From Tricharina praecox (Eukaryota): a stretch of DNA of 64,000 bases. Within the stretch, counting starts at the first letter, position 1, and every line of letters begins with the position of its first letter. Below the pieces are notes generated by a model. The model saw nothing but the letters and a program-made list of their open reading frames with translations, was not told where the DNA came from and made no database searches. The translations under genes were made by a program, and so were the position numbers. Positions 16,909-49,824 of the stretch are shown here, piece after piece. The stretch is taken from NCBI RefSeq assembly GCF_024521635.1, contig NW_026250418.1, forward strand, positions 372,001 through 436,000, given 5' to 3'.

Positions 16909-18154
16909 CTACCAAGTGCAGTATCCACCCTGAGATATGTCAGTACGAGTAAGTTCACAGTTTCAGAAGCAGATTAACTTACGTCGATGATAACATCAGT
17001 GCCCGTCATGTAGGTGGAGGCATCCGAAGCCATGAAAACAGCCAGATTGTTAAGCTCGTCGACGTTGCCCAGACGGTTCATGGGGGTGCGCTCCTTCCAG
17101 AGTTTCTTCTGCGCGTCAAGAGCGGGTACGCGGTTCAGGGCGGTGTCCATGTATCCAGGCGAGATCGAGTTGACCCGGATGTTGTAACGAGCCCACTCCG
17201 CTGCGAGCGATTTTGAAAGCATGATCACAGCCGCTTTCGATGCGTTGTAACACGACTGCTGCTGTGGCCAATTCACGATATGTCCGGACATGGAGGCGAT
17301 GAAGATCATGGAACCTGGAGAATTGGCCTTGATCATCGTGTTGCCAACCGCCTGCGCACAGACGAAGGTACCGGTGAGGTTGATGTCGATAAGACGACGG
17401 AACATCTCGACATCGTAGCCCTCAGCAGGAAGGTTGGAACTGCATACACGTCAATAAAGCTCGTCACGATAGATCGACAGAAGAAGTAACTTACTCGGCG
17501 ATACCAGCTGCGGCGACCAAAATGTCAATCTTGCCGAACTCGCTAACGGTCTGCAAAAGAGTCAGTAAGGATGCCAGCTGTGATTATTAATATCGAATAA
17601 CTTACAGCATCGACTGCGGCTTGAACAGAATCTTTCTGGCGAACATCCACTTGGTGGAAGACAACCGGGATGTTGAACTTCTTTGTCAGTTCGATGACCG
17701 CCTCGTCTCCGTGTTGCTTGAGGACATCGAAGATGACGAGAGCTTTGAGATTGACGTCACAGAGAGCGTCGGCGATGCTGTTTCCGAGGCCACGAGCGCC
17801 ACTAAGAGATGTTAGAATCGCTGTGACATCCGAGCAGGCTCCAGTTGGAATGGATTCGGAAGACAGAACTTACCCAGTAACAACGGCAACCTTGTCGTTC
17901 AAGGTGAACTTAGACAAAGTGGGGGTGATTGTCTGAGCCATCTTGGGAGTAGCCGAAGCCTTGATGTCCGAGATCAGACTCGAGATCTTCTTCGCGTCGA
18001 CAGAGCTCTGGGAGCTCTTGGGTGCGGTCGGGGTCGGATCGTTGCGAATAGGCCCGTTCGACAAGAGAGCCCTCTGAACGAACGCGGCGGGGATCTTGAC
18101 GGTCTTGATCGAAGCCAGAGGCCTCGACACGGAGACGATGCGGCGAGCGTACAT
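16909..18154 (-). CDS. Short-chain dehydrogenase/reductase, D-arabinitol 2-dehydrogenase / sorbose reductase-like, with an N-terminal extension
   Basis: KVAVVTG/GARGLG Rossmann motif, IASMSG, catalytic YNASK, IRVNSISPGYMDT, YMTGTDVIID-(intron)-GGYCTW*. About five exons with canonical splice sites. Confidence 0.92.
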
Positions 18155-24864: not shown

Positions 24865-25182
24865 TCTCTAGGTGGATTGGAGTCGATATCGCCAAACAGT
24901 CATTCTGCTTGCTTATCTGTGAGGCGGGGTGGTGGGCGAGCTGTGAGTGGGCTGATTTCGGCGATGGTGGTTGGTGGGTTGGGCTGATGTGAAGAGGTGC
25001 GAGTGGTTGCCCTGCTGGGCTGCGTAGTGACGTTCCCCGCTTACCGAGAGTTCATGACCACTGACACACCTATCGACTCTACCGCGTGCAGCCACAGCCA
25101 AGCTCTAACACCACAGCATCACTCTCTACACGACGTCGCCGCGTTCCAAGCTACAAGCTCCAACACCAAACGCGACTTCACG
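24865..25182. promoter_or_regulatory. Short divergent (bidirectional) promoter region
   Basis: Only ~320 bp separates two head-to-head ATGs (24864 on minus, 25183 on plus). Confidence 0.6.
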
Positions 25183-26337
25183 ATGCAGGGCTTCAACATG
25201 GGGTGAGGACTTCCCTTCCCGCTACCTTCACGGGAGCTAATCACCCGAAACCCCAACTGCACAGACGTTATGTCCCTCCCGAGTTCGAGGGGCAAGTTAC
25301 GGGTAACAAGCTTCACGGCAAGAAAGCGCCCGGGTTACATGGCTCCAAACAAACCGTGCGGTTCGAGATGCCTTTCAACATCTGGTGCAGCACCTGCGAG
25401 GGGCACATCGCACAGGGTGTACGGTTCAACGCCGAGAAGAAGAAGGTTGGAAACTACTTCTCGACTCCGATCTTTGCCTTCCGAATGCGCCACACGGTCT
25501 GCTCGGGCTGGATCGAAATTCGAACCGATCCGCAGAATACGGCGTATGTGGTGACGGAGGGTGCCAAGAAAAAGGCGGCAGATGACGAACCGGCACTTGG
25601 GATTATCAAGATACACGACCCAGCGGAAGCCGCGGTGGAAGACCCGTTCGCAAAGATGGAGAAAAACGTCAAGGACAAAACGGAAATCAAACAGGGTGCG
25701 GCGAGAATTGAGGAGCTCCGGGAGCTCAGCGATCGTCAGTGGTCGGACCCGTGGCAGCACTCGCGGAAAATGAGGAAGGTTTTCCGAGTAAGTCCCCACC
25801 GTCTTCCTCTTTCACGGCACGCCTGTATGCCTGCTAATTGTGGCATAGGCCGAGCGCAAAGTGTTGGAAGAGAAAGCGACTGCAACAGAAGCCATCAAGG
25901 ATCGCGCCGGGCTGTCAATAGAGCTGCTGGATGAAGCTTCCGAAGATTCCGTCCGCGCAAAGCTCGTCACATTTGGGCCTGACCACGAACAGAAGGTGTT
26001 TGAAGCACACTCTAAGCCACTCTTTGAGAAGAAGACGGAACCGAAGACTACAGATACGACCAAGACGAAAGGCAAGCTGAAGAGTCAACAAGCGATGGAC
26101 AAGACGAGGGAGGCCCTGAAGAAAGACTTGATGCGGAATACGAGGGCAGCAATTGATCCGTTCCTAACATCTCAAGATCGGCCGCGGCTAGGCCTGGGGA
26201 TCAAGATCAATAAGAGGAAGGCTCGAGATACAGACGTGGAGACGAAGAACGCTGAAATTGGAGATAGCGTGAAGATTGGAGAGGTGGACGAGAAGAAGAC
26301 GCATGGGTTGCTAGGGTTGGATTACAGCTCAGATTGA
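25183..26337 (+). CDS. YJU2B: CWC16/Yju2 family splicing factor, Saf4/CCDC130 (YJU2B) type
   Basis: MQGFNMG-(intron)-RYVPPE, VRFEMPFNIWCSTC..HIAQGVRFNAEKKKVGNYFSTPIFAFRM..C..WIEIRTDPQNTAYVV, WSDPW. Second intron at ~25788-25848. Confidence 0.92.
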
Positions 26338-27899: not shown

Positions 27900-30899
27900 A
27901 TGAAAGACGTCGCTTGGGGGCACAGGTTCGTGGAATACGGTGCTCATTTGACCTCCGGTTTGTACCGTACATACCGTACATACCGTGCCTTGCTATGAAT
28001 ACGACCCATAGATTCTATGGTGGTCAGTGGGGAAAGTCGACAGTACTACTACCTATACAATAGGTAGTATCCGAGTGAGCTGTCGAGGTACACGCAGTAT
28101 ACGGTACGGTACAGCTACTGATTACTACAGGAGCACCCATACCTACCGGTAGTTACGTCCGAAGTCCGCCGTCCGCCGTCCGCTTACGACCGTGACCGTG
28201 ACTGTGACTGTGACTGACTGTGTTCCGTCCGTGGTGCCGCAAGTCCAGGCCTCGCAGAGTCGCAGAGTCGCAGATACCATAAACCACCACGGAGTTACGG
28301 ACGCGGAGCACCGTTACTACCGTACATCACGTCATCTTGTTGCGTTCTCGGACAGTGATATCCACAGTAGGCCAAGTGAAGACCTCACGACCCCATTGCA
28401 CCGGAAGCAGAAAACGTGGCCATGCTCCCCATGCTCTCTCACGCGCGCGCCCGCAGCCAGCAGCAGCATGTGAGCGACTCCGCCTCCGCAAGACGCGTGC
28501 GGCGTTACATCGCGGACAGGAATAGCACATGCAAGCAAGCATGCAAGCAGGCAGACATGCAGACATGCAGGCACCCCGCTCCAGCGGCCAGCCTCCAGCC
28601 TTCGGCACCAGTAGCAGCAGCAGCAGGAACTTGCACCCGCTGCGGTCGAGTACTCTGCCTATGTAGGTACCAGACACCAGCAGCCGGTTCCACCCGGGGA
28701 TAGTGAGATCGCTCGTGGCATGGACGTCGACGACGAGGCTGCATCCATCCATCCATCCATCCATCCATCCATCCATCCATCCGCATTGCCAATAAATATA
28801 TGCCCACAGCAGCGTGGGAGATCTGCGACGTTCCGTGGAGTCGTGGAGTCGTGGACGCGATTAATCATTCCACAGTTTTTGTTCTGCTTTTGCTTTTGCC
28901 AGGCGGGGGAGGGGGGAGGCGGGAGAGGGATCGTGACGGCACTGGTGCATCAGCCGTGGCCCGCGGGTGGTGGTGGCACCGTTACTACCGTACCACGCAG
29001 TCCGAAGCCGGCGAAGCCCCTGGAATTTCCGGACGGGTTCGCAAACTGTAACTGTAACCGCAACTGAACCCGTGAGACGATGGGGATGGGCACGATGAGT
29101 ACAGTGCTCTGACCGCTGGGGATTACTATTCCAGACCACTCCCACCAGGCGTAACCTAGGTACGCGGCATTTCATCTGCCAATCGCTTCCGGGTCGTACG
29201 CAGAGTTCGGACGGACGGTTTAGAGAACGGGGAACGGGGAACGCTGTCGCTGTCGCTGCTCCTCGATATATCACTCGGCCTGAGAACTGCCGTCCCCAGA
29301 TGAGCGGGTCTAGCTGTGTGCCAGCCAGAAGTTAGAACCGGTTGAACGGTCGAGGAGACGGGACACGGAACACGGGACCTACTATAGAAAAACATGGCTG
29401 GCAGCACTGGCAGAGACGGGGAAACTGGATTTCTTGGTCGAGCTCAACTGGGTACAGGAGGTTGGACGGGACAGGACGGGACGAGAGCTGGTTGAACTGG
29501 ATACCTTTCCTTCCTGCTTTCTTTCCTCTTCATGCCGGTTTTCCTCATTGTGTCATACGGTGGCTGGCCGGGCGGAGAGCGATACCTAGGGAACCGGTAG
29601 GTACCTATCTATTGAGCTCGCGGCCAGCGGCCAGCGAGCCGGTGGAAACGGATAATTACTTATTATTATGTATGTAGTATCTGCCACGATCCACCACGGT
29701 CGAATGTGACATTAAACAAACCAACCCAAGACCAAACCCGGACGAACGGCGATCCCAGCGCATCATGAGAATGAAAGGTGTTGGTCGAGCACCTGGTGAT
29801 CCCGCGCCGAGTGAGCGCCCTGTGAATCACCGCCCGCCCACCCACCCACGTTTTCGCCACGCTCTCACGTCGCTGTCGCCGTTGCACTCCACTCCACTCC
29901 TGCTTACGTGCCGTGCTCTACGCCCTACGCATGCCCCACCGGCTCCCACATACTCTATACTCCATACTCCACCGGTACCTAGACTACCTACCGAACCGTA
30001 TAGGTGTATACCGGTACTCTACGCGGAGCATGGCCGAAGGAAGGAAGGAAGGAAGGAAGGAAGGCAAAGCTTGTACCATACGTACCATACCTTCCATACA
30101 TACCATACATACATATGTAGCCCTGTAGCCTGTAGCCTGTAGTCCTATAGCCCTGTAGCCTGTCCTCCGCCTCCTCCACCTTCTCCGCCTCCGCCTTCTC
30201 CGCCTCCGCCTCATCCTCTTCCTCCCAGGTACATCCATACATCCATACATTACATTACAACGAGTCTCCAATTTGAAATCGAAGACTCTCCGGCGGGCCT
30301 CGCCCACTTCCCCCGCCTCGCCCCATCCCCAGCCAGCACCCAGGCCCAGCCCCATTCCAGCCCCAGCCGTCCATAGTCCATACGAAGTTACTCTACGAAC
30401 CCATGGGACGGTAGGACTGGGACCGGGAGTGGGACTGGGACTGGGAGTGGGAGGGGGACTGGGAGTGGCCTGCTCCGCAGCTCCGCAGCTCCGCAACCGG
30501 GAATACCGCTGGACGTTGGAATCTGGATAGTGGACACTGGCCGGCGGACGTTCAATTGCGCAGTAGCAGCCTATTTACCCGCGCGATTCGAGACGGCTTC
30601 CAGAACATACACCCTCTCCGGAACTGACCCGGGGGGGGGGGGGTCCATGCGCCTGTTCCATCCAGCGTACTTATTGTGTATAGGTATGTGTGCATGTATT
30701 GTGTGTGTGTACCAGTATGTGTGTGTATTTGTGTATGTGTATGTGTATATATGTATGCATCACGATCACGCGTACCCGGACCGGAGAGCTGCCGGCAGAT
30801 ATGTATGGAACGTTATGTATGTAGAGTATGTAGATAGACCTCGGTGAAGCGAATGCACGCCCAAGCTCGCTCGGCTTTAGGCCTGCTACGTGTGAGCGT

Positions 30900-30932
<33 letters not shown>

Positions 30933-31594
30933 AGTACTCGATATTTGTGTGTGAGAGCGTGGGTATGTGTGTGTGAGAGCGTGGGTGTGTGTGTGTGGCA
31001 GGCCCACCGACCGGTGGTCATCCGGGAGCTCGCGCTCGCGCTCGCGATCTCTCGTTGTTTACCCGCGTGCGATCGATCAGCCCGTACAACCATGGACAAC
31101 ACAGAGATCACCAGCGCTTCCCGGCTCGCATCACCCCTTTCGAGTACTGGGATGGGGGAGGGTTTAGCCGGTGTTTCGATCCCCCCTCCCCCCTTCAAGT
31201 ATCGAACCTGTGATTGAATCAAACCCCACCCCCCAGCGGACACCACGGGCACCAGGGATCCCACTGACGGGCCCCACGGGCACCATGGGCCCCACGAGCT
31301 CGGTTGTAATTGTGCCGCGGGGCTCGGGCAAGGACTCGGGCGAGGCCACAGTGCCAAATAGGGATTTGCGGGTTCTTCAGTAGAGTACTCTACTTCTTGC
31401 TTAGGCGGACGTCGAACCATATGCCATATGCCATACCGTATGCATGCCTCGTGTGGATCCGGGGTTGTCTGTAGAGTATTGGCTGCTGATGAGTTGGGGG
31501 GTGCTGGGGTTTCACGAGCAAGCCGAGTGCTAGTGGGGCGAGGGGGGGAAGACGCTGCTGCTGCTGCTGATTTCGCGGCGGCGGGAGGAAGCGA

Positions 31595-31634
<40 letters not shown>

Positions 31635-34600
31635 GTTTCTAGACGGTTCTTCGGTTCTTCGTGTGCCATTGTGCCGGTGTATATGTGTGTGTATGCATGT
31701 ACATATACGGTACATACATAGACGATGTGAACGCAGCAGCAGCCGGAGAAGCTCGGACGGATATTATCATATCTATTGCGGATTGAACCGTGCGCGCGCG
31801 ACTGGACCGGATGGTAAGCATCGAAGATTTTATCCAAGCAGGAGGGAGGGAAATCAAGAGGGAAACATCATTACCAAGCAAGCAAGAAGGAAAGCAAGAA
31901 GGAAGGAAACATCATCACCCATCCATCCATCCATCCATCCATCCAGAAACTTCCGCCAGCGCAGAGCAAGCAAGCAAGTACTTTACCTGGACATACCTGA
32001 ATATACGTGAATATACGTGAATATACCTGTTGTTGTACTGTACGTACTGTACGTAGGGCCAGCGGATGTCGGCGGGTAGTTAACCAGCAGCAGCAGCAGC
32101 AGGTTTTTATCGATTCCGCACGGCAGCGCAGCGCAACCTGCCAGACCAGGCCAGTGACGATCCCGCCCGCCCTGTCCGCCGCCCTGTCCGCCGCCGCCGT
32201 CAAGATCGAAAGGTCCAGAATTAGCATCCGGTTTGCCAGCTGCGATGGGGAGGGGACTCAGGGAGCCCTCCAATCGAGAGCCTGCGCCACCGGATCGAGG
32301 GGCGTAGATACTCTACGTATCGGGGAAACCGCAGCAGTGATCCTGTATATGTGTGTACTCTACTGTAGAGTAGAGTATCTATCGACTATCGACACCTCTC
32401 CGTGCGGCGAACTCTAATGCGACGTGACATGACATGCGCATCCGGAACCAAGTAAGCATGTAACTATTTGCATACATATCATACCTGATATCGATCGACT
32501 CCGCCGCCTCCTCCTCCTTCTCCTCCTCCTTCTCCTCCTCCTTCTCCTGCTCCTTCTCCTCCTCCGCCTCCACCCCAATGCAGTAGTTCCAGCAGCGCCC
32601 TCCCGGTTCCCGACGGCAGGCAGGCAGATAACTAACCCACACCCGAGCAAACAAGATAACTACATATCCTATCCTCTCCTCTCCGCCCCCGCTACTATGT
32701 ATGTACATACCCCACTCGGGTAGGTAGCATAGTACCGTATGTATGTAGGGCCATCGCGGCATCCGGGGGTGGGGAGAGTGGGTGGAGAGAGGTAGTCCGG
32801 ACGCTCTCGATGAATCCGCGTGGTCCGCAAGTGTCGTTCTGCATGCGCATTATGCTAGCAGATATATAGTATTACCTAGCTCTCGATGCCTATCTACAGT
32901 AGAGTAACTAGAGTAGAGTGCTCACTCGCGAACCGCACTCCCGTAGATAAGGCTGATAGATAGTGGACTGCGGACTGGACTGCGGACTGGACTGTGGACT
33001 GTGGACTCGGTGTGTGCCAATGGCCAATGGCAATCCCTCCCTCCGCCCCCCGGATTTTGCGTTTGAAGGGAGGGACGGAGCGACGGAAGGGAGGGGAGGG
33101 GGTGGGGGACGGAGCGACGGAGGCAATCCGGATCAATACCTGATACATATATATCGAAATGGGAAAGTAGAATTCAGGGAAGCTGGGTACTCTACTCTAG
33201 AGTGCGGAACGAGAGCAGAGCAGAGCAGAGCAGAGCAGTGCTGAGTCAAGTCGAGTCGAGTCAAGTCAAAGTGGATAACCTATTTCCCGTCTCCTCGCCT
33301 CCTCGTCTCGTCTCGGATCCGGATATTCTCGCAGTTTTTCCGTGGCAGGGGGAAGGGAGCCGATATTATTCCGTCAGTCTAGCACACACACACACACACA
33401 TGCTCTACGTAGATTAAGCGTGTATGATATGTATGTATGTGGAGTAAGTTGTGTAGATATCCCGTGTGGATGGATGGAAGGGATACAAGTGAGAGTCACG
33501 GCAAATCCACTCCCTGCCGTAATTACTCTACACAGTTACATGAGTACCTACGGTACATACATGCGCGAATCCACTGCCCCCTTTGAGCCCCGTTTCCCCC
33601 GTCCCCACCCCCTCCCCACCCCCCAGTTGTCGCGGAGCGCATCATGTGTTTAACTATTCACGCCCGGGTCGCACACACGCCCCACACTCAGACTCACGTA
33701 AGGCCGCAAGTACCGTGCTTTCGTACCACGACGGGCACGTAACATGGCGGAGAGTATGTAGAGTATGTAGGTATGCTAGGTACGGGAGAGTAGCGAACGA
33801 ATGAGGAGTGGACCCTTGGACTTTGGTTAATGCCTGGCAGGCCCTGTTCCCTTCGTTTCTCTCTCTGCCGAGTCACCCCCCCAGCGGCCCAGTCCAGCCC
33901 CCCTCCCTCCCTTCCCCTTCCCTTCCCCGGTGCGTGTTTCGTTATGTACCTGTGTGTATGTAGAGTACAGGTACAGGTACTTGTGTATTCTAGAATAGTT
34001 ACAAGGCTCGAATCGCTGGCTGGCTGGAACAGTGAACTGTGCAGGCAGATGGCCTCCGACTCTCCGAGCTGAAGGTTCCTTTTTCCTTCTTTCCTTTTCT
34101 TTCTTTCCTTTTCTTTTCTTCTTTTCTTTTCTTTTCCTTGATCGATTGATTGATTTGATCGATTTGATTGATTGATTGAGGTTGTATGTATTTGCAATGC
34201 GCTGACAAGTCAAGTTGCTACCTAGTACCTAGCTTACCTGCCTACCTGTTTCAGGAGCAACCCGTGCTGTGTACACCCACTCTACTCTAGGTAGTAACCA
34301 ACTACCTAGCAGGTATTCAGGTCACGTTCCAATGTTCCAATGTTCCATCGCCGTGCTGGCGCGCGTCCGGCGATGTTGTTGCTGCTGCTGTTACTGCTGC
34401 TGCTGCGGATCCAGCTGCGGATGCTGGTGGTGTAGTGTTGGGTTGCCGGGTTGCTGTCACCGCTTGCTTGCTCGACTTCAACGCCGACTTCGCTGTGGGA
34501 GGGACAGGTCACGGAACACTAGCCACGTCTCCTCCTCCTCCTCCTCCTCCTTGGTTACATAGTCGATGCCCCAGCTTTGGAGCGAACGAACGGAGGAAGG

Positions 34601-37600
34601 AAGGAACGAACGGAGGAAGGAAGGAACGACGAAGGAAGGAAGGAACGAACGGAGGAAGGAAGGAACGACGAAGGAACAGTGTGTGGGGTTCGATGTGGGG
34701 GGGGGGGGGGGGGGGCGTGAGCGGGTGGCTGACTGACGGACGGGTTTCATATTACCGTCATCTACAGCACATACAACCGCGCCGCCATCGCCGTCGCCGT
34801 AGGATGTTGTTGTTGCTGTTGCTGTTGCTGCTGCTGCTATTGTTGTCGTTAACTATTGTTGTTGTTGTCGGTAGGTACAAACCGGTCAGCTGCCGTCGTC
34901 GCCGTCACGGAGTCACCATTCCTCCATCTCCATCTTCTTTGTTGTCGTTGTCGTCGTCGTCGGCCGTGCAGGCGCTGGGCGCGAGCGAACGAGCTGACAG
35001 GACAGGACAGGACAGGACAGACAAATCGGCAAATGCCATGCTCTAGTGTTTGTTTCCCACCCGACCCCACACACGCCCAGACACCCCAGACACGCCCAGA
35101 CAAGACAAGATGTCGGTTCGGTTTCGGAAGGATGCACTGCTCCCAAGCCTTGACTTAGCGGCGCGGGGAGTTATCCGGGTACTTGTGGTGGGGCACGGGA
35201 TGGAATCGGGAATCTGGATGGATGGAATCCGATGGATGGACTTCCCCACGTATGTGCTAGTTGGTACTATGTTTTAGGTATGTATCTACTCGGTGCCTAG
35301 AGAGAGCGAGAGCGCGCTGGGCCGTGAAGGAGGAGAAGGATCGGAAACAGGTTCTCTAGAGTACGGTAGGTATCGTTGTGTATCGTTACGGATGAGCGCT
35401 CCATTTCCAGCAGGAAGGAGGAACTTGGAAGGAGGATGATGGATGATGGATCACGGCGGGGAATCTACGGTATGTAGTCGCTTCTGCTTCCGCTTCGTAC
35501 ATGCATACCAGGTATGCATAGGGTACTAGGTGGTATGGATATGTAGCTCCAGAGATGTTCGAACGGCTTCAGGCGAGGAACGCGACGGTGATATCTGCAT
35601 CCTTCTTTCTCAGAAGCGGCGGCGGCGGCACCGACACCGACAGGATTGAATGCTTGTAGCTTGCAGCTTGCAGCCTGCTGGTGAGGCCGAGATCTTCCGT
35701 GATCCGTCCACGACTCCACGTCGCCGGTTTTGATAGATTCTTCGCGCTTCAAGTACATACAGTACCTACTGGTAGCTGTGTGGACATGAGCAGCGAGCTT
35801 TCAGGCGAGGTTGAAGTGGGCTGCAATCTGGGTATGATACTCTAGTAAAGTTTCTGGATCCGAATCTCTCTCACTGCACCGGTGAATCTCTCTCGCCGTG
35901 GCAATTCTATGAGGTATGTACCCAACTCGTGGCAGTGCGACTCCACTGTCGTTACCATCACCACCGTGTTGGTGCTGTCAGCCTGTCAGTTGTCACCACG
36001 AGTCCGTATGTAGTTGCCTGCGCCTGCGCCTCCACCACCAGCAGCACTAGCCACAACCCATCGGCTACCTACCTTATTCCAGGCCTAGCATCTTTGCACC
36101 TTTGCATCTTTTCTCCTGCTTGCTCGAGAACAAAACCCGCTATCCGGATACAATCTAACTACTCCACATACTCTACATAAACCCCCAAGTAGAGTGGACT
36201 CTGCAGCTACATATCCGATCGCGATCGCCTGCAGCCAGCAGCAGGAGCAGCAGCAGTGAACGGTGCACTTGTGCAGGCCGCAGGCCCCCGCAGGCGGTAC
36301 TCTACTCAGCACGTGCTACCGCACATACTTACATACATACACATATAGGAAGCGACATGTACTCTACATACCCCCCCCCCCGAAGAACTCCCCGATGCTG
36401 CTGCTGCTGCTGCTGCTTCCCACGGCCGCGTTTCGGATATTTAGTTGTTGGCCGGGCGGAATCGGAATCGGAATCGGAATTGGGCGTATGGTTGGCTTCC
36501 GATAGCCACGGCTGTATGTACGGTATATGTACGGGGGAACCGGGGAGACGCCGGGAGGATTTGCTTCGAGGGGGTTTCCCTGCACACATACACACACTCG
36601 GTACGTACCTCGAGTACGCACGAAACGTGGAACATGGGCAGTGAGCGGTGCGGTGTGGGGGGAATTCCGGGGAAGTGCTGGGCTGCAATTGAAAAGGCAT
36701 CTGTCTGCCAGGATGAGGATGGGGATGGGGGTTAACGTTGCATCTGCCTGTCTGCCTGTCTGTGTGCCTGTCTGCGTGCCTGCCTGTCCGCCCGACGCTC
36801 GTCCGTCCGATTGTTTCTGTCTCTGTTTTTGTCTCTGTCTCTGTTTCTGTTTCTGTTTCTGTTTCGCGATTCCCGATCGTATGCTTCTCATGTTTCCTTT
36901 TTGTATGTCTGGCAGTCGACGGCCATCAGCTGCCGGTGGTGGTGGTGGTGGTGGTGGTGGTGGTGGTGGTGGTGGTGGCTGTCCCCCACATCCACGCCCA
37001 CGCTCACGCCCACGCCCACGCCTACATACGCCGACGCCCACGCTCACGCTCACGTCCCCATGCGGACATCGTCAAATGTACGTAGCCATCCCTGGTTCTG
37101 ATTCGCGGCTCTCCAGGCCGAGCATAGATACTCTAGGTATTCGCGTTTCGGATGTCCCCAGCATCCCATCTCATCCCATCCCACTTACCTAAAAACGAAA
37201 GAAAGAAAGAAAGAAAGAAACGATCGTGATGTGATGTGGAGAATGTCGGTCATAAGTAGCAGGTGCCCAAAGCGCAGCCGCTCACTCCCTCCCTCACTCA
37301 CTCCCTCCCTCCCTTCCTTCCTTCCTTCCTTCCTTCCTTGCTCCCTCGATATGAGCTCTCCCGAAAGCCAGGCACGGGCTGCGGGAGTGCTAGAGTTAGA
37401 GTGTGTAGGGTGGAGTATGTAGAGTCCCTAGCGGGAATCGAACCCAGGCTCCAGCTCCGGCCTCCGGCAATACGGACCGGAGCTGCTACAAGTGAGAACT
37501 TGAACTTGGAAGCTGGCAGGTACATATCGACATAGGCATCTAACTACGAAGCGAGGCAAGACGAGGCGAGGCGAACGCGGATTCCCGTGGAGGATGATTG

Positions 37601-40600
37601 GCAGGTGTCTAGGGGGTCACTGGTTATGATGTATGTACTGTACCTCTGGAAGCTGCATATGTGTGCATAGTGTACGGTAGATATAAGGTATCCCCATATG
37701 TACTTGGAGGTTAATTATGCGCATAGACGATTCGACGCGTCGAAACGGCGAAAACATCTGCTTACTCTACTTGGTTCTCCAGAGCCTTTGTATGTACCCC
37801 GGAATCGAGTCGAGCAGAGCAGAGCATCTACACAGTGCATCCCCCTCCTCCTTCCACATCCGGAGCGGGTACTTACGGCCAGGTCAGGTCAGGCCGAAGC
37901 CTTGGCATCAGCACACCGCCCACTCCCCCGTCGCCGTTCCCCCCACGGAGCCCACAGAGCCCAGTGATCACGGGTCGTCCGAAGGGGTTGAATCGTGATC
38001 GTGATCGTGATCTTTGCGCGGCCCGTTCCCGCTCGCAGTGAGAGGGAATGCTGTGGTGCGATGCGATGCGATGCGATGTGATGGGATGGGATGTGATGGG
38101 ATGTGATGGGGTGGGGTGGGATTGCGATGTGTGTGTGTTGGTGGCGGCGCTGGATGGGGAACGGCGAAGTTCGAACGGGGGAAGCCTGAAGCCTGAAGCC
38201 TGAAGAACCAATTGAAAACGGAGATGGTGAGAGGATGCGGAGATGGTGAAGGATGCGGAAGGGGTATGTGTACGTGCTACTACCTAGTATAACTAGTAGG
38301 TAGTTAGTTAGGCTAGTGGCGGATTCTTCACGAGAAGGTGAAGGTGATGGCATGGCATGGTGATGTTGTGTTCCGGTTTTCGTGGCGATATTCGGCTGCA
38401 GTCTCGAGCCTCGAGCCTCGAGCGTCGGCGCCACGGGCTGGTCACGGACATCACCAGGCACCGTATCTATATGGGTAACTACCATCCTGGAGTACTAGGT
38501 ACGGCCATTTCAACCACCGACCTGGAACCCCAAGTATCGCCACCACATAGACACCCCACACTGCACACCGCACATTGTTTCTTTCGTCCCAAGCCGGCCC
38601 CACGCTTCCAAGTTCCGCGTGACTACTCTCGGCATCTACCTGGTAGTAGGCGAGTAGCCTCCGGTCTCGGCCCCGCGCATTGAGGCGTCGTTAGGTAGTG
38701 GTCAGTGGTCACCGTCACCGTTGGCTTCGTGTGCAATGTGCAATGCGTAATGGAGGTATGGTATAATGTGCATTGCATTCATATTTCATTTCATTTCTCG
38801 CCTCACATTTGATCCATGGTATCGGGGAATATCGATGTATGTAAAGTACCCTGACAAAAAGGACTGGACAAAGCCCGTTTTACACCAAAAATGCCCGTTT
38901 CCATGCAACCCAAACATACCCTCCACCTGGTGGAAAAAAATCGTCTCTTTCACAGAAGCGTTAGAATCACAAGCTTCTTCATCAATAAAAACTTTGACGA
39001 CTTTCATCACGGATTGGGGCTGTATGACGTTGTGTGTGCAGGAGTTGAAAAGTGACATGACATTTTGTATGGGGCCCCCATACAAAAGGCTACTTGGCAA
39101 CCATTAACTTTTCCCCCATATGGTATTGTTCCACAACAACGATTCAGAACTCCGCGAGGAGTTCCCATATCGTTGTTGGTGTAATTATAGAGGTCTCCCG
39201 ATGGTCTCTGATTTTTTTTCGATACGTTGTGGCTGTTGTATCGATAGTTGAAAATGGCCATTTTTGGTGTAAAGCGGACACTGTCCAATCCTTTTTGTCC
39301 TAGTACTGTATGTACTCTAGGTAGATCAAGGGAAGGGAGAAGAAGAAGAAGAAGAAGAAGAAGGGAGACCATATTACCTATCATGTTACTACATAGAGTG
39401 TGTTGCTAATACATGACATACGCCCTGCGGTTTGCGGGATGCAGACATATCAGGCTGAGCTGATGTAGGTATCATGTTACCTACACCGTTATCGTCGGAG
39501 AATAGACTGCGAGAGTGGTTTTGTCCCGTTTTGTGGAGTGAAGTGGAGTGAAGGATGTCCATTGTCCATTGCCCATTCCAGGAGCCAATCCGTAACCGCA
39601 GTCTGGAGTCTGGGACGTGCTTGCGTGCGGAAGATGGGGGTACCCTGTGAGAGGTCACGCCTTGCGACTCATTCCTCCCACTCCACTGCCGTGCTGCTGC
39701 TGTGTCAGTGTGTCTCCATGTAGAGTTGCAAGTTGCAACGGCTCCGGCCGCCGGGCTGGAAGCCTACTCTACATACATGTTAGGCACCGGTAGGTACTGC
39801 CCCCCAGTGTGCACTGTGAACGTCGTGATCGTTACACGAGGCCAATATAGATGTCCGTCGTGATGCGGCGCTGGGTAAGCATGCTGTATCGTACGTTCCC
39901 TCGCTCTCTTCCTTCCTTCCTTTCTTCCTTCCTTCCTTCCTTCCTTCCTTCCTTCCTTCCTTCCTTCCTTCCTTCCATCCATCCTTCCGTCCACCCGCCC
40001 GTCTCGGTATCGGGATTCCGTCATACATATGCGCGCTTTCGCGCCGCGGTTGATAGGTACATACATCATGTAACTACCGTACCTATGCGAGTGTGCGTGC
40101 GTGCCCAATCCAGAATATCGAACCCGGCCAGCCATCCATGCATCCATCGCATAGTTAACATGCGGTTGTTTCATGAGCTGACCGACAGACCGACTGACCG
40201 ACCGACCGACTGAACCAGCGCCTGACTACCTACCCAGGTAGAGTAGAGTACCTAGAATACAACTGCCAACTCACCACTCCACACCCTCATTTTCCCCCCA
40301 CGGGCCCGGAGCGTGATCCTATTCCATCCCAGAATTCCTTGAGCATCCATATGTATGATGCTCCAGCATCCACTCTCCGGCGCGGTGCGGCGCCGGTAAG
40401 GTAAGGCAAGGCGGCTCCCGCTCGCGAGGGAGGGAGGGAGCGAGCTTTGTTTGTCGAGCTCGAGCTCGAACGAACGAACGATCCCCAATGCCCCATGCGC
40501 CCAGGATGCGGAGTGCGGGGGGAGCATGCTATTGGTGGGGCATGTCATGTCATGTCATGTCGCTGTCGCCGTGCGTGGGGTCACTGGGGTGGGTGGGTGG

Positions 40601-43600
40601 TGGGTGGGTGATCGGCACAGCGGCTCGAGGACCGGATTTACCGAGCGGCGAGTGTCACGAGTTCTACACTTCACCTCACTAGATACCGGTACTAGTAGGT
40701 GCACTACCTACACTACACTACACACGTACCTGTACCCAAGTTATCATGAGTATGATCATACAGCCAGCGAACCGGCGAACGTATTGGAACGCTCGAACTT
40801 CGACCAGTTGTTGTGTTGGGTACAGCAAGGAACGGTATGTATGGTACGGGTTCATGCGAGCTGATCCTCTGGCTGGGAGTCTCGTACTACGTACTCTACG
40901 TACCTTATACCGTACTTGAGTACTGGCGCGCCCATGAGTGATCGGTCAGTCGGTCGTGATCTAATCGGCCGTGACCATCGCCCCCGTCCGTCCGTCCGGC
41001 TGGCCGTGTTTGGCCGTCCAATCCGATTCAATCCAATACAACCGGGACAGCGCTCACGGGACCAGACGTCCATGTACCTATGATAGGTACGGTAGGCTCG
41101 ATATGTGTTATGTACCACCGCGGCGATGCTCAGGGGTTTCTTAACTAGAGTACTCGGGTGTAAGCTCACCTTCCCCCATACAACTTAGCGTTTTCCCCCA
41201 TACAACTTAGTCACAGCCCCTCACTCATTTCATTGTATCTGGATTAGTGCACTACTAATATAGACTAGTGCTTGTAATTCGTAATGGTGGTGAGGCACCA
41301 CTTATTGGCAGCTCCTGGTACACAGGTACATGCCCAACTTGACTGATGCTGATGATGCTGATGATTCTGATGATGACGGGATCAATTTCACCTGCCTGTC
41401 CGCCTGCCTCGACGTTGCGTTGCGCTGCGTTTCGTTTCGTTCCGTGCCGTTCCGTGCGCGTGTGTGTGTGTGCGACGACGGCGCTTACGGTTGCTCCCGG
41501 AGATGACGAAGGTTCAAGGGATCCCGCCCACTGGTCCTGAGTCTGGTTTGTCTGATGTACCGAGTTGTGGCTTACGTATGATATCCGGACGGCAACTACT
41601 CTAACTCTACATCAGCCCTTTGGTTGCAACTTATGTACTTGCTGGCAGCCGGCCGACCGGCCGGCAGAATACGGAGGAGTACTCCATAGTAGTATTGTCC
41701 GCAGTTACAGCGCGTGTAGGGAACGGCGCCTTTTCCACGATTTCCACGATCCCACGATCCCACGATTCCGCTGTCCACGATTCCCTCCCCGCAGCCCCGC
41801 TTCTCTTCTCGGAAGCAAACGTGAAACGCCCGCCCCGAAGCGGTTATATACACTACACCCGAGACGGATTGGGCGGGCGGGCAGGCTATGTACCTATGAT
41901 GTTCGCTTTCCTCCGGGGCCCAGGGGGCTGCTCAAGCTCAAGGTCGAGGTCGAGGAAAGCAGGCAAGCAGGCAGGGCTTGTCCTTGCACGTACGTACATA
42001 CAGCACAGCACATGTCTGTCCGTCCGTCCTGCCGTTCGTCGTGCTTAGTCGAGACTCGAGAGGTATGTAAGAAGTAATATGATACGGTACTCTAGTAGCA
42101 GTGCATGGTATGTACGAGTACAGCCAGGTCGGTTTTTTCTTCTTCTCCATATCATACTTGTTATGTAGAGTAGAGTAGAGTACCTGCCTTGGCTTGACTT
42201 GAATTGACTTCCGTTTGTTTGCCCGTTTGTTTCCCCACAATGCAATGCGATTCGCTTTTTGATTTTGGTTTTTTCGGTTGCCGCGGGCGCGGGCGCGCGC
42301 TCTCGCGCATGGCCAGTCCGGTTGGGAAAAAGAAATAAGAAATGGAAAAAAAAAAGAACTGATGCTTCAGGCATCAATCAATGCTCAAACAAGCAAGCAA
42401 GCAAGCTTAAAGCTCAAAGGCGCGATCTCGTCTCGTCCCGTTTCAGGGAGGGGGAGGGGGAGTGGGGGGGACGGGGGAGGACGAGCGACGTCGGAATGCG
42501 GAGAATCCCAACCCACATCCATCAGGGGACAGGACAGGACGGGACCGGACAGCAGAAGTCACTACCATGTAGACTCTAGGCGTCACACTCCCCCCCGCCC
42601 CGCCCCTTTGACGTCCGCGCGAGTAACAGTCAAGTCAAGTCAAGTCAAGTGAGGTGTCGATCATTCACCCCTCGGGGAGGAGGAGGAGCTCAGCTGAGTT
42701 GCCTGCCTGCCTGCCTGCCACTGCCAGCGAAGCATTGAGCGATGTCCACGTGCACGCACGCACTCATCTTTTTTTTCCCCTTCTTACCCCACGGGGTGGA
42801 GGGAGGAAGGAGCAGCGACGAATGATGCCGCGAGATAACAATAGAAAGTACTCTACTCTATGAGTCTATGTACTGTAACTATTGCATGTCATCATTGTCA
42901 TGTCGTTTTTACACAACGGAATGGAATAGAAACGAATCAACGAATGGATCAACGAATGAATGAATCAATGAATGAACGAACGAATGAACGAACGAATGAA
43001 CGAATGGATGAATCAATGTGAGAGGCGGGGTGAGTCGCAGCTCTCAACTCTCAAGCAGTAGTTACTCTACCTGGGTAGAGGTGAGGTGAGGTGAGGCAAG
43101 GCAAGGCATTGGTGATGGGATGGGATGGGATAGGTTGGTGAATCGTGATGAGTCCTCAGTCGTTCGGTCGCTTTTCTTGGTTACCTGATTGCTTTGCTTG
43201 CTTGCTTGCCTGGGTTACCTGACTGCTTGCGTGCTGCTTGCTTGCGGTCGATTGCGAATTTCCCTCCCTCGCTGCCTGCCTCCCTCCCGTCTTCGTCTTC
43301 TCTCCGGGAGGAAGAAATTTTTCCTTTCCTTTTCTTTTCTTTTCTTTTCCTCGCTCGCCGTTCCTTCTTTTCTTTTCGCGGCGAGACGTGATAGCCGTCT
43401 GAATATTATCTTCTCTTCTCTAGGTAGGTCCTCTAGGTACTCTACTCCTGCTCGTCCGGGAGAGGGGGAGGGGGGAGGGGGAAGGCAATCGCAAAAGGAA
43501 CTGCAGGACGTGGAGGAGCAGGACGTGGAGAAGGACGTGGAGGAGGAGTAGAGTAGGTAGGTGGAGGAGGAAGTATGAAGTAATAGTAATCCCTAGCTGC

Positions 43601-44430
43601 TGCTGCCGCTGCAAGTCCGTCCACGTCCCCTCCACGTCCTGGCTCCTCCACGTCCGCCGAATTCGACTCGACTGGACTCGAGCCCGTGGGGAACTGGGGC
43701 TTGCACCTGCCACCTACCACCTCGTTCATGGGGCTATTTTCAACCGCCTGCGGTGTATGTATGTATGTAGATCGCTGGAAATATGTAGTTGCTTGGGTTA
43801 GGTACGTTAGGTACCTGTATGTATGTACCTGTGCCTAACCTATACATATCATACGTGCGGACTACCCACATACTAGATATACACACATGCCTAGAGGTGG
43901 ACCTAAGCGAGTGACGGGATGCGACGCGACGCGACGCATTCACGATACGATCACAGGGTGGTGGTGGAGGTGGTGGTGAAGCAAAGCCACGCAAAGCAAA
44001 AACAAGGCGGCCTGGCTGGCTGGCTGGCGGGCGCGGGCTCATCACCTGTGCGAGTTGTGTGCGTGGTGTGTGCACTATGGGTGCGTGGTGTGATGGGGCG
44101 TTTGAACGTTTAGAGTACCTTGGCTGAGGCGTCACGAGTACTCTACCTTCAGTTCTTCTCCTCCTCCTCCTCCTCCTCCTCGAGTCCTTGGTAGGATCCC
44201 AATTCGATATCTAGATTCTAGATACATATCGCCGCAAACGGCCATCACATCACGGGGTGGGGAGGATGGTCCGGGGGTGTTCCGGAGGTGGCAGTGAGCA
44301 ATTGAGATAGAGTACCTACGGTACTCGCTAACTATCCCGGAACGGCGTGCACACTCGACGGTGGACAGGTGATACGAGTGTATGTGTGTACGGTGCCTTG
44401 TGGTCATCGTCGTGGTGGTGGTGGGTAGAG

Positions 44431-44490
<60 letters not shown>

Positions 44491-47400
44491 TTTCTTTCTT
44501 TCTTTCTTTTCGATCCACCCTCCTCCAGCTCCAGCTGGCGGAAGAACTAGAGTACTGCTTTCTGCTGCTGCTGCTGCTGCTTGCGATACTTCCTGCTGCC
44601 GTAGACTCGCTCTATCATACCTAGTAGGTACGATAGATAGCAGCTCAGCTCAGCTAAGAACTCTGACTCTCTAGATAACCGTTCTTTCTGCTGGGGGGTT
44701 CGTGCCGGAGAGGAAGGGGAAGGGGAAGGGGGGGCATACATATCGCTCTGGCCGACCCGACCCTACTCTACCGACCTATGTACCGATCACATGTCGAAAA
44801 AAATTCCGGTCCTGTCCTGTTGAACATACCGAAGAAGGCAGTCCGAAGAATTGCCTTCGCTTCGTAGATACCGGTATGTAAATAGCTGGTGGAGGGTGGA
44901 GGGCGGAGGGTGGAGGATTCACCACCAACTCCTCCACTCCACTCCACTCCCTCTAGAGTATCGGTAGCCCACGGTAGGGGATGGATGGAAAAACCTCCAA
45001 GCAAAAAAAAACTCCGCGAATTATGTAGAACCTATGATATGTATGCTGTATGTACGCTGTAGGTATGATGTATGTAAGCCTCCCCTTCCCTCCGGAGCGC
45101 CTCCTCCTGGTGTTGTATTTTACCCGGTGAGTTGAATTGAACCGGACGTTTCGAGGTCCCAACTACTGCCTGCCAGACAGGACAGGACAGACAGGACAGG
45201 ACAGAAACGACAGACAGAAAGACAACCATCTCGGAATGGCGTACCAAGATTTCCCTTCCCTTCCCTCCCTACTCCCCCCACCCGCCCGCGCCAAGGAGTA
45301 ATGGCTTCGAAGTTCGATGGGGGGGGGGATGTGGAGACCAAAGCACACACCACCACAGCACACACAGCACGCACACAGCACGCATCCGATCAGGTATTCT
45401 CGATGGATGGATGGATGGATGGATGGATGGATGGATGGACTTGTGGTTGGAGGACTCGACTAGAGTAGAGTAACTAAACGGACGGAGGAAAAAAAAGCAG
45501 GAAAAAAAAAAGAAACGGGAAGAAGCCGAAGAAGAAAGAAGGAAAGAAAAGAAAAAGAAAAGAAAAAGCCAGGCAGACAGACACGAGATGCGAAAGTGGT
45601 GAAGAAGAGGATTGAGAGGATAGAGTGCCTTTTTGGTTTGATTTGGTTTGGTTTGGGGCTTGTTTGCTTTCCTTTCCCTTCCTTTCCCTTTCCCGGGGAA
45701 ACTGGCAGGGCGCCCGGCCGGCTGGCTGGCTGGCTGGCATGGTGTGGAGTTTCTTCTTCTTCTTCTTTTTTTTTGTTTCTTTCTTTCTTTCTTTTACGGT
45801 GCTCTGTGAGGTTTGCTCTCGCTCTTATTATCCACGACATCTTTGGAATGTCGCGCGGGATTATTTTATTATTTTCTTTTCTTTCTTTCCCACTTGCGTT
45901 CAATCAAAGCAGCTTGACGAACGGACGCGAGCGAACGAGCGGGAAACAATTGGGGGACGGGGAGTCGTGGACGGGGGAAGGATAAGACAAGACAAGGGCA
46001 GAGCAGGGAGAGACCGGCCGCCGCCGTCGAGTAGAGTAGAGGTTGAGTAAGTACCGGTATGTAACAACAACGGCGACAGCAGACAGCAAGAGAGAGAGAG
46101 AGAGGCCTCGTGACGGTTCCCATGACAGGAGCACTGCCGCCGTAACCTTCCTCCCTACCCTACCTACTGCTGCTGGTACGTACCTGTTGCTCACCAAGCG
46201 ACCTTTGTTTCGTTCGCTGGCAGTGAGCGGACGGGGAGCCGGAGGGAGGGAGAGAGAGAGAGGGAGGGAAGGAAGGAACGAAGTCCGGAGGAGGAGGTCA
46301 TAGTCACGGTCATAGGTGGAGGCAAGTAGAGTAGAGTACATACCTCATACACACACACACATACAGCATTTGGAGATGTGGGTGGGGCAATGGGAAAATG
46401 AACGTGGCGGGTGGGATTTACATTCGCTCTACACACCGGTACCAAGGTACATAGCACTGTACAGTACGTTTGGTTCCTATCGGCCCCCTCAAGTTCTTTA
46501 GCAGTTTGTTACATGGTAGCAGGCAAAAACGGGTTCTCATCCGTTTGAGGGGTGGCCATCGTGGCCACGATGGAAACAGTCAGCATCTCGCGGCGCCATC
46601 ACCAGCATCACCAGTATCACCAGCATCACCAGTATCACCAGTATCACCAGTATCACCAGTATCACCAGCATCACCAGCATCACCAGTATCATCAGCATCA
46701 TCATCAGGCTCATCGAATACATACGTTGGCCATCCGTCCGGAGGCAGGAGGCATGGACTGCATGAAGCATGGCAAGAACGGTATGTACATCGTAGCAAGC
46801 TTCTCAGCAGAGCATAAGAAGTGAATCCAACCATGTGCTACCTATAGCAAATCATAGCAGAGCAGAGCAAGCAAAGCAAATCGCAAATCGCAAATCGAGA
46901 TAGCCAAAGCAAAAAAGAAAGCATGGTGTGCGGTGCGTGAGTTGAGTGAGTGCGTGTGGTGCGTGAGTGCGACGAGGAGCCCCCCACCCGATGGGCCACC
47001 TACATACCTGCCAGCCATAACCAGCCAGCCAGCTGCCAGCCAGCGAACTCTGAAGGAACTCACGGGCTCTCTTTTCGTCTTTCTTCTTTTTTTTTGTAGG
47101 TAACAGGATCTAAATTCGGTTCGCACCTGGTAATTGCCCGAACGGGCCCACTCCACTGGACAGTACGGCAACAAGTCAGGTTCTACTTCAGTCCGTGGTG
47201 GGTTGCGATTGCCCTGCCCTGTCTTGTCCTGCCCTGTCCTGTCCTGTCCTGTCTTGTCCTGTCTTGTCCTGTCCTGTCCATCCATATCTCACGTTTTTCC
47301 TTCTTTTTTTATTTATCGGTGGCCAGACAGCCAGCCCGCCCAGCAGGCCAAAAGCGAAGCAAGCGGAGCAGAGCACGCACACACGCACGCCTCAACTAAC

Positions 47401-48173: not shown

Positions 48174-49824
48174 ATGCCTTCGCGGCTAAATAGCCCTATT
48201 CTCGCCGTCGATATGAACCGTGTCGCCGGTGTCGACCCTAGTAATGTGGATAATCTCTACAGCATGTGGACCAGTTAGTAGGCACCTATCCAAAAAGAAC
48301 GAAGAAAGAGAAAAAAGAATGAAAGAATGAAAAAAGCATCGTCAATCCAGTTTCGATCAGGAGGCTAACCATCGGATCGATAAAGTCTTTTCAAAATGCG
48401 CCGAGTCACTTGAGAACGGCCGTCGGCTAGAAAACTTGAGCTGGAGGCTATGGAATCGGGAAACTTTCTGCTGCGACAATGGCATCCCGGCTACTGTCGT
48501 TGCCTCCACCACCACTACCAACACAACCACACCGCCAGCGACGACAATACCGATAAGGAAACCGAGGCGTCAGGAGGAGCCTTTAGACATGCCAGAGCTT
48601 TCCTCGAGCGTGGTGTCAGCACCATCGGACGACGAACTGCCGGAACAGCGATCGGGAGCAGTCGGGATCAAACGCCCTTGTCTGACCAGGAGCGATTCCA
48701 GCCGAGGCAGAGAAAAGCACATGACTCCGGTCCACCTGGCTAAGATCATGGAGGATATGAGCCACAGCAAATCCGCGGCCGAGGAGTGGAAGGCTCAATG
48801 CGCGCGCATGCGACGGAAAGCATCTTCCATGCCCACTGAGCGTGTACCCGCTGCGATGGCCGCGTTGTCCAAGAGCTGCGATGATGGTACGGAAGCGAAG
48901 AGCACCCACAGCGTCGTTCGTGGTTTCTCGCCCAGCCGGGTGTCCTCGTCGTATCGATCATCGGCGAACCTCGCTGCTGCCGCCTCCTCGAAGGTAGTCG
49001 TCGCCCCGTTGCCAGCGAAGATCGCTACTCCCGCACCGAAACCAGTACCGGCACAAGCACCAGCACCGTCGACACAGAAGAAGAAGCAGCCCGTTTTCTT
49101 CTTCGCTTCGTCTCCTTCGTCCGACGGCAGCCCAGATGAGTCTTACTGTTCGTACAGGCAGCCGAACGACAAGAAGACATCCTTCATGGACGAAGTTGCA
49201 ACTCGAACCCTCTACGACGATGATGATTCGGATGACGACGAGGTTTCTGAGAGCGCCATCGACGATGACGACCTCGAATGGGAATCCTCGTCCGAGAGTG
49301 GCTCATCCAGCTACGACGACAACTCGATGTTCAAGCGTGTCGAAAGTCGGCCCAATCTGATCGCGTCCCGCCGATCTCTCCTGTCCACGATGCTCCACGA
49401 GCCCGAGCGTGCCGCGCATCTCGCCAGCGTAGCCTCGAAGTCGACTCCCGCCCTCCGTCGATGCAATTCGCCCCGTGAGCCCCCGCTCGGTACGCCCGCC
49501 TCCAGGGAAGACGAGGTTCCGGGCTCGAAGCCCATCCGCCGCATCAACACGGCGCTTCATCCGCTCGCCTTGTCCCCGCGAACCACCCGGCGCAACATGC
49601 TCGCTACCGAGCTCACCGAGTCGCTGCGCAAGCATCTCCTGTGGGAGAGGCAGCAGAAGAACACGACCGCCTCGGCTCATCTCAAGCGGAGATACACCGC
49701 CGCCGATGTCACCAAGCTGGCCGATTACCCACAGCCTCGCGGTAAAGGGTGCACTTCCAAGAACAACTCTTGGAACAACCCCTTCGACGAGACCCAATAC
49801 GAATACCACGCGGCCGGGTGGTAG
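48174..49824 (+). CDS. DUF1752 (AreA/Mks1-like N-terminal motif) + DUF3295 domain protein, putative nutrient/stress regulator
   Basis: MPSRLNSPIL...NLYSMWT-(intron 48274-48385, GTTAGT..CTAAC..AAG)-IFSKCAESLENGRRLENLSWRLWNRETFC. C-terminal ESAIDDDD..WE, FKRVESRPNL.SRRSLLS, SPRTTRRNMLATELTESLRKHLLWERQ, YHAAGW*. Confidence 0.9.

Follow-up and report, generated by a model that had tools for sequence, protein, structure and literature searches.

An over-represented octamer in a non-coding domain of Tricharina praecox is one link of TAC chains

A 64-kb stretch of the genome of the Pezizomycete Tricharina praecox (contig NW_026250418.1, positions 372,001 to 436,000; hereafter referred to as the window, from whose first letter all positions are counted) contains a non-coding domain that is hyperdense in microsatellites (29500 to 47000) and that holds 36 of the 44 matches in the window to the octamer TACTCTAC or its reverse complement GTAGAGTA. 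We found that this octamer is no stand-alone element; it is a link of chains in which TAC triplets follow each other at a distance of one or two bases, (TAC-N1-2)n, and 33 of the 43 such chains with at least three triplets lie in the same domain. In the vocabulary of these chains, the octamer is the second most common link and the commonest five-base link, with TAC-A-TAC being more frequent; it had surfaced in a first-pass annotation of the sequence because words of eight letters were looked at. The interpretation that we favour, and to which we give about an even chance, is that the octamer belongs to a neutral simple-sequence texture, which slippage or short tandem duplications produced in DNA that is transcribed and unconstrained.

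Over-representation of the octamer and its place in TAC chains

Exact matches to TACTCTAC/GTAGAGTA number 44 on both strands of the window, compared with 0.94 (standard deviation 0.91, largest value 5) in 100 dinucleotide-preserving shuffles of the same sequence, a result that bears out the massive enrichment claimed in the first-pass annotation. Window-wide Markov models of orders 1 to 4 led us to expect 1.06, 1.65, 2.5, and 6.5 copies, respectively. When matches at most 30 nt apart are merged, 35 octamer loci are obtained, the top locus count among all 8-mers of the window, with TACATACA as the runner-up (34 loci); the 24 single-substitution neighbours of the octamer are present in 0 to 13 copies each (94 in total). 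The interval from 30001 to 46400 contains 36 matches in 29 loci, and Markov models trained on this interval only predicted 0.36 (order 1), 0.71 (order 2), 2.0 (order 3), 7.7 (order 4; largest value 17 in 200 simulations) and 26.6 copies (order 5; largest value 46). In this local Markov comparison, the excess hence withstands orders 1 to 4 and vanishes at order 5 only, where the model, fitted to 16.4 kb, had learnt the octamer's own 6-mers. The over-representation of the octamer is genuine and statistically robust.

All 29 start positions reported previously between 30015 and 46326 were present, as were each of the five outliers (15648, 51814, 54769, 56391, and 62389) and the perfect palindrome GTAGAGTACTCTAC at 31380-31393, in which two octamers (31380, minus strand; 31386, plus strand) stand head to head. 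The previous list lacked one outlier on the minus strand (21816) and the overlapping tandem matches at 32370, 40243, 42170, 42175, 46331, 51819, 51824, and 31386. None of the 44 matches is located inside an open reading frame (ORF) with Pfam support, in agreement with the proposed absence of the octamer from coding exons. The description of the matches as isolated words with unrelated flanks holds only in part: nine pairs of matches are in 5-nt tandem register. An 11-mer, TACTCTACATA, is common to 10 octamer loci, and 13 of the 35 loci are situated within chains of at least three TACs. Further arrangements include an inverted pair, TACTCTAC-T-GTAGAGTAGAGTA (32356-32377), and the longest (TACTC)n run of the window (22 nt; 51811-51832, plus strand), which lies outside the main domain. 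The body of a transposable element, be it a miniature inverted-repeat transposable element (MITE), a short interspersed element or a solo long terminal repeat, was considered and rejected: the flanks of the octamers are unrelated and all 20 direct-repeat families found in 29-47 kb are simple sequence; hence, the octamer is not part of such an element, and the view that it forms neither one tandem array nor a transposon body holds.

The wider vocabulary became apparent from the spacing of TAC triplets. Between 28 and 48 kb, there are 89 occurrences of TAC-N1-TAC (spacer A, 50; C, 23; G, 13; T, 3) and 78 of TAC-N2-TAC (TC, 36; CG, 9; GG, 7; AG, 7), while an order-2 Markov model predicts about 15 of each. 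On one strand, TAC-to-TAC distances peak at 4, 5, 9, and 13 nt, and chains with four TACs preferentially mix the two basic spacings (4-5-4, nine chains; 5-4-5, four chains) as compared with uniform ones (4-4-4 and 5-5-5, two chains each). TAC pairs at a spacing of 4 or 5 nt exceed expectation 4.3-fold in the domain and 2.5-fold in the rest of the window. The chains show no preferred direction in the domain, and the order of orientations is random (plus strand, 44; minus strand, 53; 46 runs of like orientation vs. 49 expected, P = 0.29).

Several of the TAC chains are perfect 9-mer duplications. One of these, (TACCGTACA)2.3 at 27963-27983 (plus strand), is a perfect tandem duplication without any octamer, and another chain, (TACGTACAG)2.3 at 32035-32055 (minus strand), can be read on both strands through its GTAC palindromes. 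The 16-mer TACATACTCTACATAC has two exact copies, and 17 matches with at most three mismatches are found vs. 0.18 expected. Its first copy (30817-30832, minus strand) is a four-TAC chain with 4-5-4 spacing, and the second (33754-33769) forms part of the five-TAC chain TACCTACATACTCTACATAC (33754-33773, minus strand). The word TACCTAC, which corresponds to a TACC/GGTA unit, occurs at 36 loci in the window. The octamer itself grades into (TACTC)n arrays and into 9-mer duplications: among the 49 maximal period-5 runs of at least 8 nt, nine reach at least 12 nt and 25 are exactly 8 nt long.

Simple-sequence load of the domain and the favoured origin of the chains

With the threshold of at least 12 nt for a perfect simple sequence repeat (SSR) that is given in passages of a survey of eukaryotic genomes (PMC6387519), the domain (29.5-47 kb) carries 146 perfect SSRs, which amounts to 8.3 per kb and 12.8% of its bases. 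Two other long non-coding stretches of the window contain 19 and 18 SSRs (2.1-2.2 per kb; 2.7-2.8% coverage), and the density in the HECT gene of the window is 1.7 per kb. In the same passages, which concern 719 eukaryotes, about 118 kb per Mb ranks as a high SSR density and fungi have the lowest densities on average (PMC6387519). The units of the SSRs in the domain are diverse, and tracts of (GGAA)n, (CTTT)n and (GGAT)n are as long as 41-59 nt. Most octamer loci fall below the 12-nt threshold, and only a minority are true SSRs. In a comparison of the window with sequencing runs, none of the insertions and deletions in the rows listed (12 of 34) is located at an octamer locus. Related to the number of SSRs, octamer loci in the domain (29 loci, 146 SSRs) and in the other non-coding stretches (4 loci, 37 SSRs) are less than two-fold apart.

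At every period from 4 to 12, the domain contains more runs with two or more perfect units than expected. We counted 213 runs of period 4 (57 in simulated sequences), 111 of period 5 (17 simulated), 49 of period 6 (3.6 simulated), 31 of period 7 (1.1 simulated) and 13 of period 9 (0.2 simulated). The excess is weaker in the other non-coding DNA (119 vs. 50; 38 vs. 14; 13 vs. 1.1), and coding DNA has none (22 vs. 25; 2 vs. 6, observed vs. simulated). Among the pentamers, ACTCT/AGAGT is the top class (49 runs of at least 8 nt), closely followed by AAAAG (42 runs). Short repeats of non-coding DNA that are generated by slippage are known as cryptic simplicity, and the pattern found here, an excess of duplications at many periods and none where the reading frame constrains insertions and deletions, is the one to be expected of such DNA. 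The first-pass annotation had offered two explanations for the octamer, a chromatin or DNA-binding signal and the scar of a mutational or transposon-footprint process; the mutational scar fits best, given the hyperdense SSRs and the period 4-12 duplications that are absent from coding DNA.

In the scenario that we favour, TAC microhomologies that lie close together would give rise to units of 4, 5, and 9 nt, through replication slippage and through the duplication and deletion of short tandem segments between them. These units would be extended and shortened repeatedly, and point mutations would then erode the resulting TAC chains, so that cryptic simple sequence would build up over 17.5 kb of unconstrained non-coding DNA. 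Slippage-born insertions and deletions would be tolerated because nothing in the domain needs an open reading frame, and it is for this reason that the domain would also be loaded with ordinary microsatellites. Slippage between TAC microhomologies would give runs with a length of k x p + 3 that bear TAC at both ends; we infer slippage as the generator and TAC microhomology as the cause of the TAC-to-TAC run ends. No sequence-specific reader of the octamer would be required.

A number of observations weigh against this scenario. Of the 25 maximal period-5 runs that are exactly 8 nt long, 17 have the sequence TACTCTAC, and the other four rotations share the remaining eight; random erosion of 5-mer duplications should yield equal phases (chi-square p = 1.6e-7), and the absence of a preferred phase that one would expect from slippage was thus not what we observed. 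TACATAC (23/44) and TACCTAC (17/37) share this phase lock, which is otherwise restricted to homopolymer-type words (AAAGAAA, CCCACCC, GGGAGGG). Moreover, a run of 8 nt comprises fewer than two units and hence is not made directly by a 5-nt duplication. After masking of SSRs with at least three units, TAC/GTA still forms 124 pairs at spacing 4/5, and the next trinucleotide forms 54; plain slippage does not account for the favouring of the TAC triplet. The density of octamer loci (1.7-1.8 per kb vs. 0.23 per kb outside, i.e., about 7- to 8-fold) rises more steeply than the density of SSRs, which increases only 4-fold, and in their distance to other SSR arrays, octamer loci do not differ from random positions (median 39 nt vs. 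31 nt). As controls, we used metagenome contigs scanned with the 18-mer (TACTC)3.6, which yielded at least 116 stretches, 80 of them with flanking sequence. Four 20-kb metagenome loci with a (TACTC)n array contain one or two octamer loci each; therefore, possession of an array does not entail dispersal of the octamer.

The likeness of the chains to known simple sequences is correspondingly mixed. With microsatellites and cryptic simplicity they share period 5, the gradation into (TACTC)2.6-4.4 arrays and the confinement of the octamer to non-coding DNA, beside a heavy load of SSRs and duplications. They differ in that most octamer loci are 8 nt long (1.6 units), sub-threshold and phase-locked, and in that octamers join 4-nt units in mixed 4-5-4 chains instead of forming long homogeneous arrays. 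The (TAGG)n and (ACCT)n repeats of Neurospora crassa, as described in passages of PMC2257937, likewise contain TAC/GTA and are mainly non-genic, and their TACC/GGTA unit is present in the window as well; however, they are true SSR arrays that occur about 1-1.6 times per Mb genome-wide (PMC2257937), whereas the words found here are mostly two units long, exceed one per kb and are dominated by TACA and TACTC. Two further mutational or structural explanations were discarded. Repeat-induced point mutation has left no signature (TpA/ApT 0.90; (CpA+TpG)/(ApC+GpT) 1.05 vs. 1.09 in other non-coding DNA; GC content about 55%), and inverted octamer pairs at most 100 nt apart, which might form hairpins or foldbacks, are found at about five places and do not dominate.

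Should the neutral interpretation be true, it carries a caution, namely that a 40-fold k-mer excess in fungal non-coding DNA can arise from simple-sequence dynamics and that motif discovery in such DNA needs a short-tandem-duplication background beyond Markov composition. For the specialist, the interest lies in a TAC triplet that is favoured and phase-locked beyond what plain slippage predicts, and in the concentration of so much perfect microsatellite (12.8%) in one 17.5-kb block.

Cis-acting signals, transposon footprints and satellites as alternatives

Because the words are phase-locked to TAC...TAC, a functional reading is kept alive, one that we consider possible but doubtful: the TAC/GTA chains would be cis-acting signals read by a putative factor, either at the level of RNA or at that of DNA. 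At the RNA level, clusters of GUA cores on the complementary strand could end pervasive non-coding transcription in that direction or make its transcripts unstable. Passages of PMC4949328 describe (A/U)GUA(A/G) as the motif of Seb1, a termination and 3'-processing factor for Pol II in Schizosaccharomyces pombe, with GUAG and UGUA as top tetramers; GUA clusters exert their effect 3' of poly(A) sites, and the gene bodies of S. pombe are depleted of the motifs. Nrd1, a further Pol II termination and 3'-processing factor, binds GUAA/G, a motif shared with Seb1 (PMC5737872). Going by its letters, the complement of the octamer, GUAGAGUA, reads GUAG plus AGUA and thus holds two abutting cores of the (A/U)GUA(A/G) type; GUAUGUA holds UGUA, and GUAGGUA holds GUAG. 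Like the Seb1 motifs in the passages cited (PMC4949328), the words studied here are clustered and depleted from gene bodies, with the octamer missing from exons. The sharp identity of the words and the phase lock to a TAC core are in keeping with a reader, as is the near absence (3/89) of TAC-T-TAC, whose reverse complement, GTAAGTA, would be a strong 5' splice site. The domain furthermore appears to be transcribed and spliced on both strands, and in both transcripts whose strand can be inferred (two cases only), the RNA carries the UAC orientation, as if GUA-bearing RNAs were cut short. The placement of the chains argues in the other direction. They form no orientation blocks along the domain, and the first 700 nt or so after the stop codons of the Pfam-supported genes are free of them. 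The nearest chains are found 0.75-2 kb past the stop codons of three genes, and these more distant chains (16121; 27963 and 28100; 50582-51814) carry TAC, not GTA, on the sense strand. Judged from stop codons and not from poly(A) sites, both the strand and the position are therefore at odds with termination clusters, and unlike the Seb1 and Nrd1 motifs, the words are not positioned 50-100 nt downstream of guessed mRNA ends and are randomly oriented. Among the spacers that fit (A/U)GUA(A/G), only TC is common; the others (AC, TT, and AT on the TAC strand) are outside the top four. A role of the words as 5' splice sites or branch points was rejected, since they do not fit GTRNGT or CTRAY and GTAAGTA is the rarest spacer variant.

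At the level of DNA, the chains would be a homotypic cluster of sites at which a putative DNA-binding or chromatin protein attaches and thereby marks the domain. Clusters of transcription factor sites resemble the situation described here in that many copies of a short word occur in both orientations over a long gene-free stretch, which adjoins a putative regulator-like gene (DUF3295/AreA-N-terminal-like domain). They differ in that here one exact word prevails in place of a degenerate family and in that this word is found within tandem chains. The promoters and 3' flanks of most genes nearby lack the octamer, the orientation of the chains is random, and none of our observations speaks for a chromatin or DNA-binding signal that marks regulatory domains. 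That functional TAC/GTA chains mark a defined 17.5-kb non-coding domain of a kind not described in Pezizomycetes strikes us as unlikely. For a study of protein binding, TACTCTACATAC is proposed as a probe. If the functional reading is true, the words would open a way to test how pervasive non-coding transcription is kept in check in filamentous fungi. Two explanations that require mobile or satellite DNA fit the data less well. The octamers would be excision footprints of TA-duplicating transposons of the Tc1/mariner type inserting at (G)TA(C), if a duplicated TA brackets two or three end bases, as in G-TA-CA-TA-C and G-TA-CTC-TA-C. Footprints of Tc1-type elements resemble TA-CA-TA or TA-CAG-TA, and the words of the domain have the form TA-(2-3 nt)-TA: TA-N2-TA (206) and TA-N3-TA (128) far outnumber TA-N1-TA (40) and TA-N4-TA (44), few fillers dominate (CA/TG, 86; CC/GG, 50; CTC/GAG, 53), and TACTCTA is preceded by G in 27 and followed by C in 44 of 69 cases. 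Moreover, a MITE-like element at 38849-39303 sits exactly in a GTAC site, as G-TA-[element]-TA-C. Nevertheless, a footprint origin is very unlikely. It requires that hundreds of insertions and excisions became fixed within 17.5 kb, or about one every 70 bp; neither chains of three to five TACs nor perfect 9-mer duplications nor (TACTC)3-4 arrays can be made by footprints; no transposase domain was detected with Pfam among 109 ORFs scanned; and no matching element ends were found, those of the MITE-like element (CCC.../...TAG) being such that they would not leave a CTC filler. More improbable still, to a degree that we hardly credit it, is the descent of the octamers from one long (TACTC)n satellite or an octamer-bearing dispersed repeat that has since eroded. 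Five to nine octamer loci are still in tandem, and contigs of other organisms (L011 and L078) contain a (TACTC)3 block in shared, possibly mobile sequence. The flanks of the octamers, however, have no residual similarity, the matches, in either orientation, are scattered through 16 kb that also contain unrelated microsatellites, and blastn revealed no locus similar to the window among the metagenome matches listed.

The MITE-like element is an object in its own right. It is 455 bp long, its terminal inverted repeats can be aligned over 55 positions, 44 of which match, and it reads G-TA-[CCCTGACAAAAAGG...CCTTTTTGTCCTAG]-TA-C. Many variants that diverge by about 10% were found in all four sequencing runs that we compared, including RNA-like ones (the RNA or DNA nature of these runs, hereafter 'RNA?' or 'DNA?', was guessed), and the element is thus multi-copy.

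Other genomes, genes and transcription

The style of sequence to which the octamer belongs is probably not private to this lineage. Most of the metagenome matches listed are ordinary (TACTC)n microsatellites of diverse eukaryotes with a lower GC content, and 31 metagenome loci of at least 5 kb (270 kb) contain 243 TAC pairs at spacing 4/5 vs. 159 expected (ratio 1.5). One metagenome locus (L029) with a similar look of the sequence contains four octamer loci, all of them clustered around an intergenic region in a span of 1.9 kb; its other 13.8 kb are devoid of the octamer. The best named hits of its RibD_C protein (52-56%) are from Leotiomycetes, Eurotiomycetes and Dothideomycetes, which points to an unrelated fungus of the Pezizomycotina; this locus is weak evidence because it was picked through the octamer motif. 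Among the tetranucleotide SSRs of N. crassa, (TAGG)n and (ACCT)n are the most frequent, and they are mostly non-genic (passages of PMC2257937). The clustering in L029 and these TAC/GTA-containing repeats make it doubtful that the signal is lineage-specific, as had been suggested. Two contigs from different metagenomes (L011, 5305-5345; L078, 5915-5960) share the sequence ...CTACTCTACTCTACTCTACTCATTTRACACACTG..., which in L078 is surrounded by inverted and direct copies of TACTCTAC(T) in AT-rich DNA; this block possibly represents the terminus of a mobile element in another eukaryote, with the octamer as a subterminal repeat. In the literature, the octamer strings occurred in primers or constructs and in no work on fungi among the matches listed, and searches by words turned up no paper on the octamer or on TAC chains.

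ORFs with Pfam support flank the domain on both sides. On the minus strand, these encode a HECT/TRIP12 protein (2797-7583), a short-chain dehydrogenase (16977-17869) and a Ysc84/SH3 protein (19888-21323); on the plus strand, they encode a Saf4/Yju2 protein (25065-26334) and a DUF3295 protein (48,331-49,824), whose best named relatives are found in Wilcoxina mikolae (68%), Sphaerosporella, Geopyxis and Tuber. When the 109 stop-to-stop ORFs of at least 90 amino acids between 26.4 and 48.3 kb were scanned against Pfam, none reached the cut-off, and the three matches obtained were all of low complexity and below the cut-offs. The codon log-likelihood ratio is at most 0.078 for the 86 ORFs in 29.5-47 kb, compared with 0.14-0.21 for confirmed exons, a test that is supportive only, since two real or likely exons (25065-25931; 58793-60658) also fall under the 0.12 line. 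Scans for Rfam families (E up to 0.1) and tRNAs yielded no tRNA and only three matches to miRNA models, all far below the threshold.

The 29.5-47 kb stretch is probably transcribed. Contigs of two RNA-like runs (X2 and X4) join across stretches of 53, 96, and 159 nt, where 'DNA?' contigs are unbroken; the term gene desert is therefore appropriate for protein-coding genes and not for transcription. The 53-nt stretch (37835-37887, plus strand) is a GT..AG intron that is seen as a joint in X2 record 10 and that X3 record 16 ('DNA?') contains without a break; the octamer match at 37763 lies within the exon upstream of it, and six-frame translation of the spliced plus-strand transcript revealed no long ORF. 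An alternative GT..AG intron of 96 nt (37631-37726, plus strand), which corresponds to a joint in X4, has a 5' end, GTATGTACTGTAC, that is itself a GTA chain. The 159-nt stretch (about 42,028-42,187, minus strand) is skipped by contigs of X2 and X4 (joint 42027>42187) and is spanned without a break by X1 record 5 ('DNA?'); three letters fit on either side of the joint, and the stretch, a probable intron, reads GC..AG on the minus strand if the cut is shifted by 1 nt. It contains a (TACTC)3.6 tandem array followed by ATAAC (42165-42182, minus strand). The regions 37352-38044 (plus strand) and 41541-42446 (minus strand), which appear to give rise to spliced transcripts without a long ORF, are candidates for long non-coding RNAs.

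Several other features were recorded. At the right edge of the domain, a minisatellite with a 9-bp unit (ATCACCAGY) extends from 46580 to 46721 with about 15 units of 90-98% identity. An imperfect inverted repeat of GGACGTGGAG-type units at 43503-43660 folds at -61 kcal/mol (z = -4.9 vs. shuffled sequences) and has a weak match, on both strands and far below the threshold, to a model of a MITE-derived plant miRNA. Fixed differences are seen in each of the four runs at 41190-41280, a short segment where the summed depth of contigs is very high and which probably belongs to another multi-copy element. Finally, GC skew is strong at 7-10 kb (+0.25 to +0.28) and at 46-49 kb (-0.16 to -0.23), possibly as a consequence of low-complexity coding or untranslated sequences of the flanking genes.

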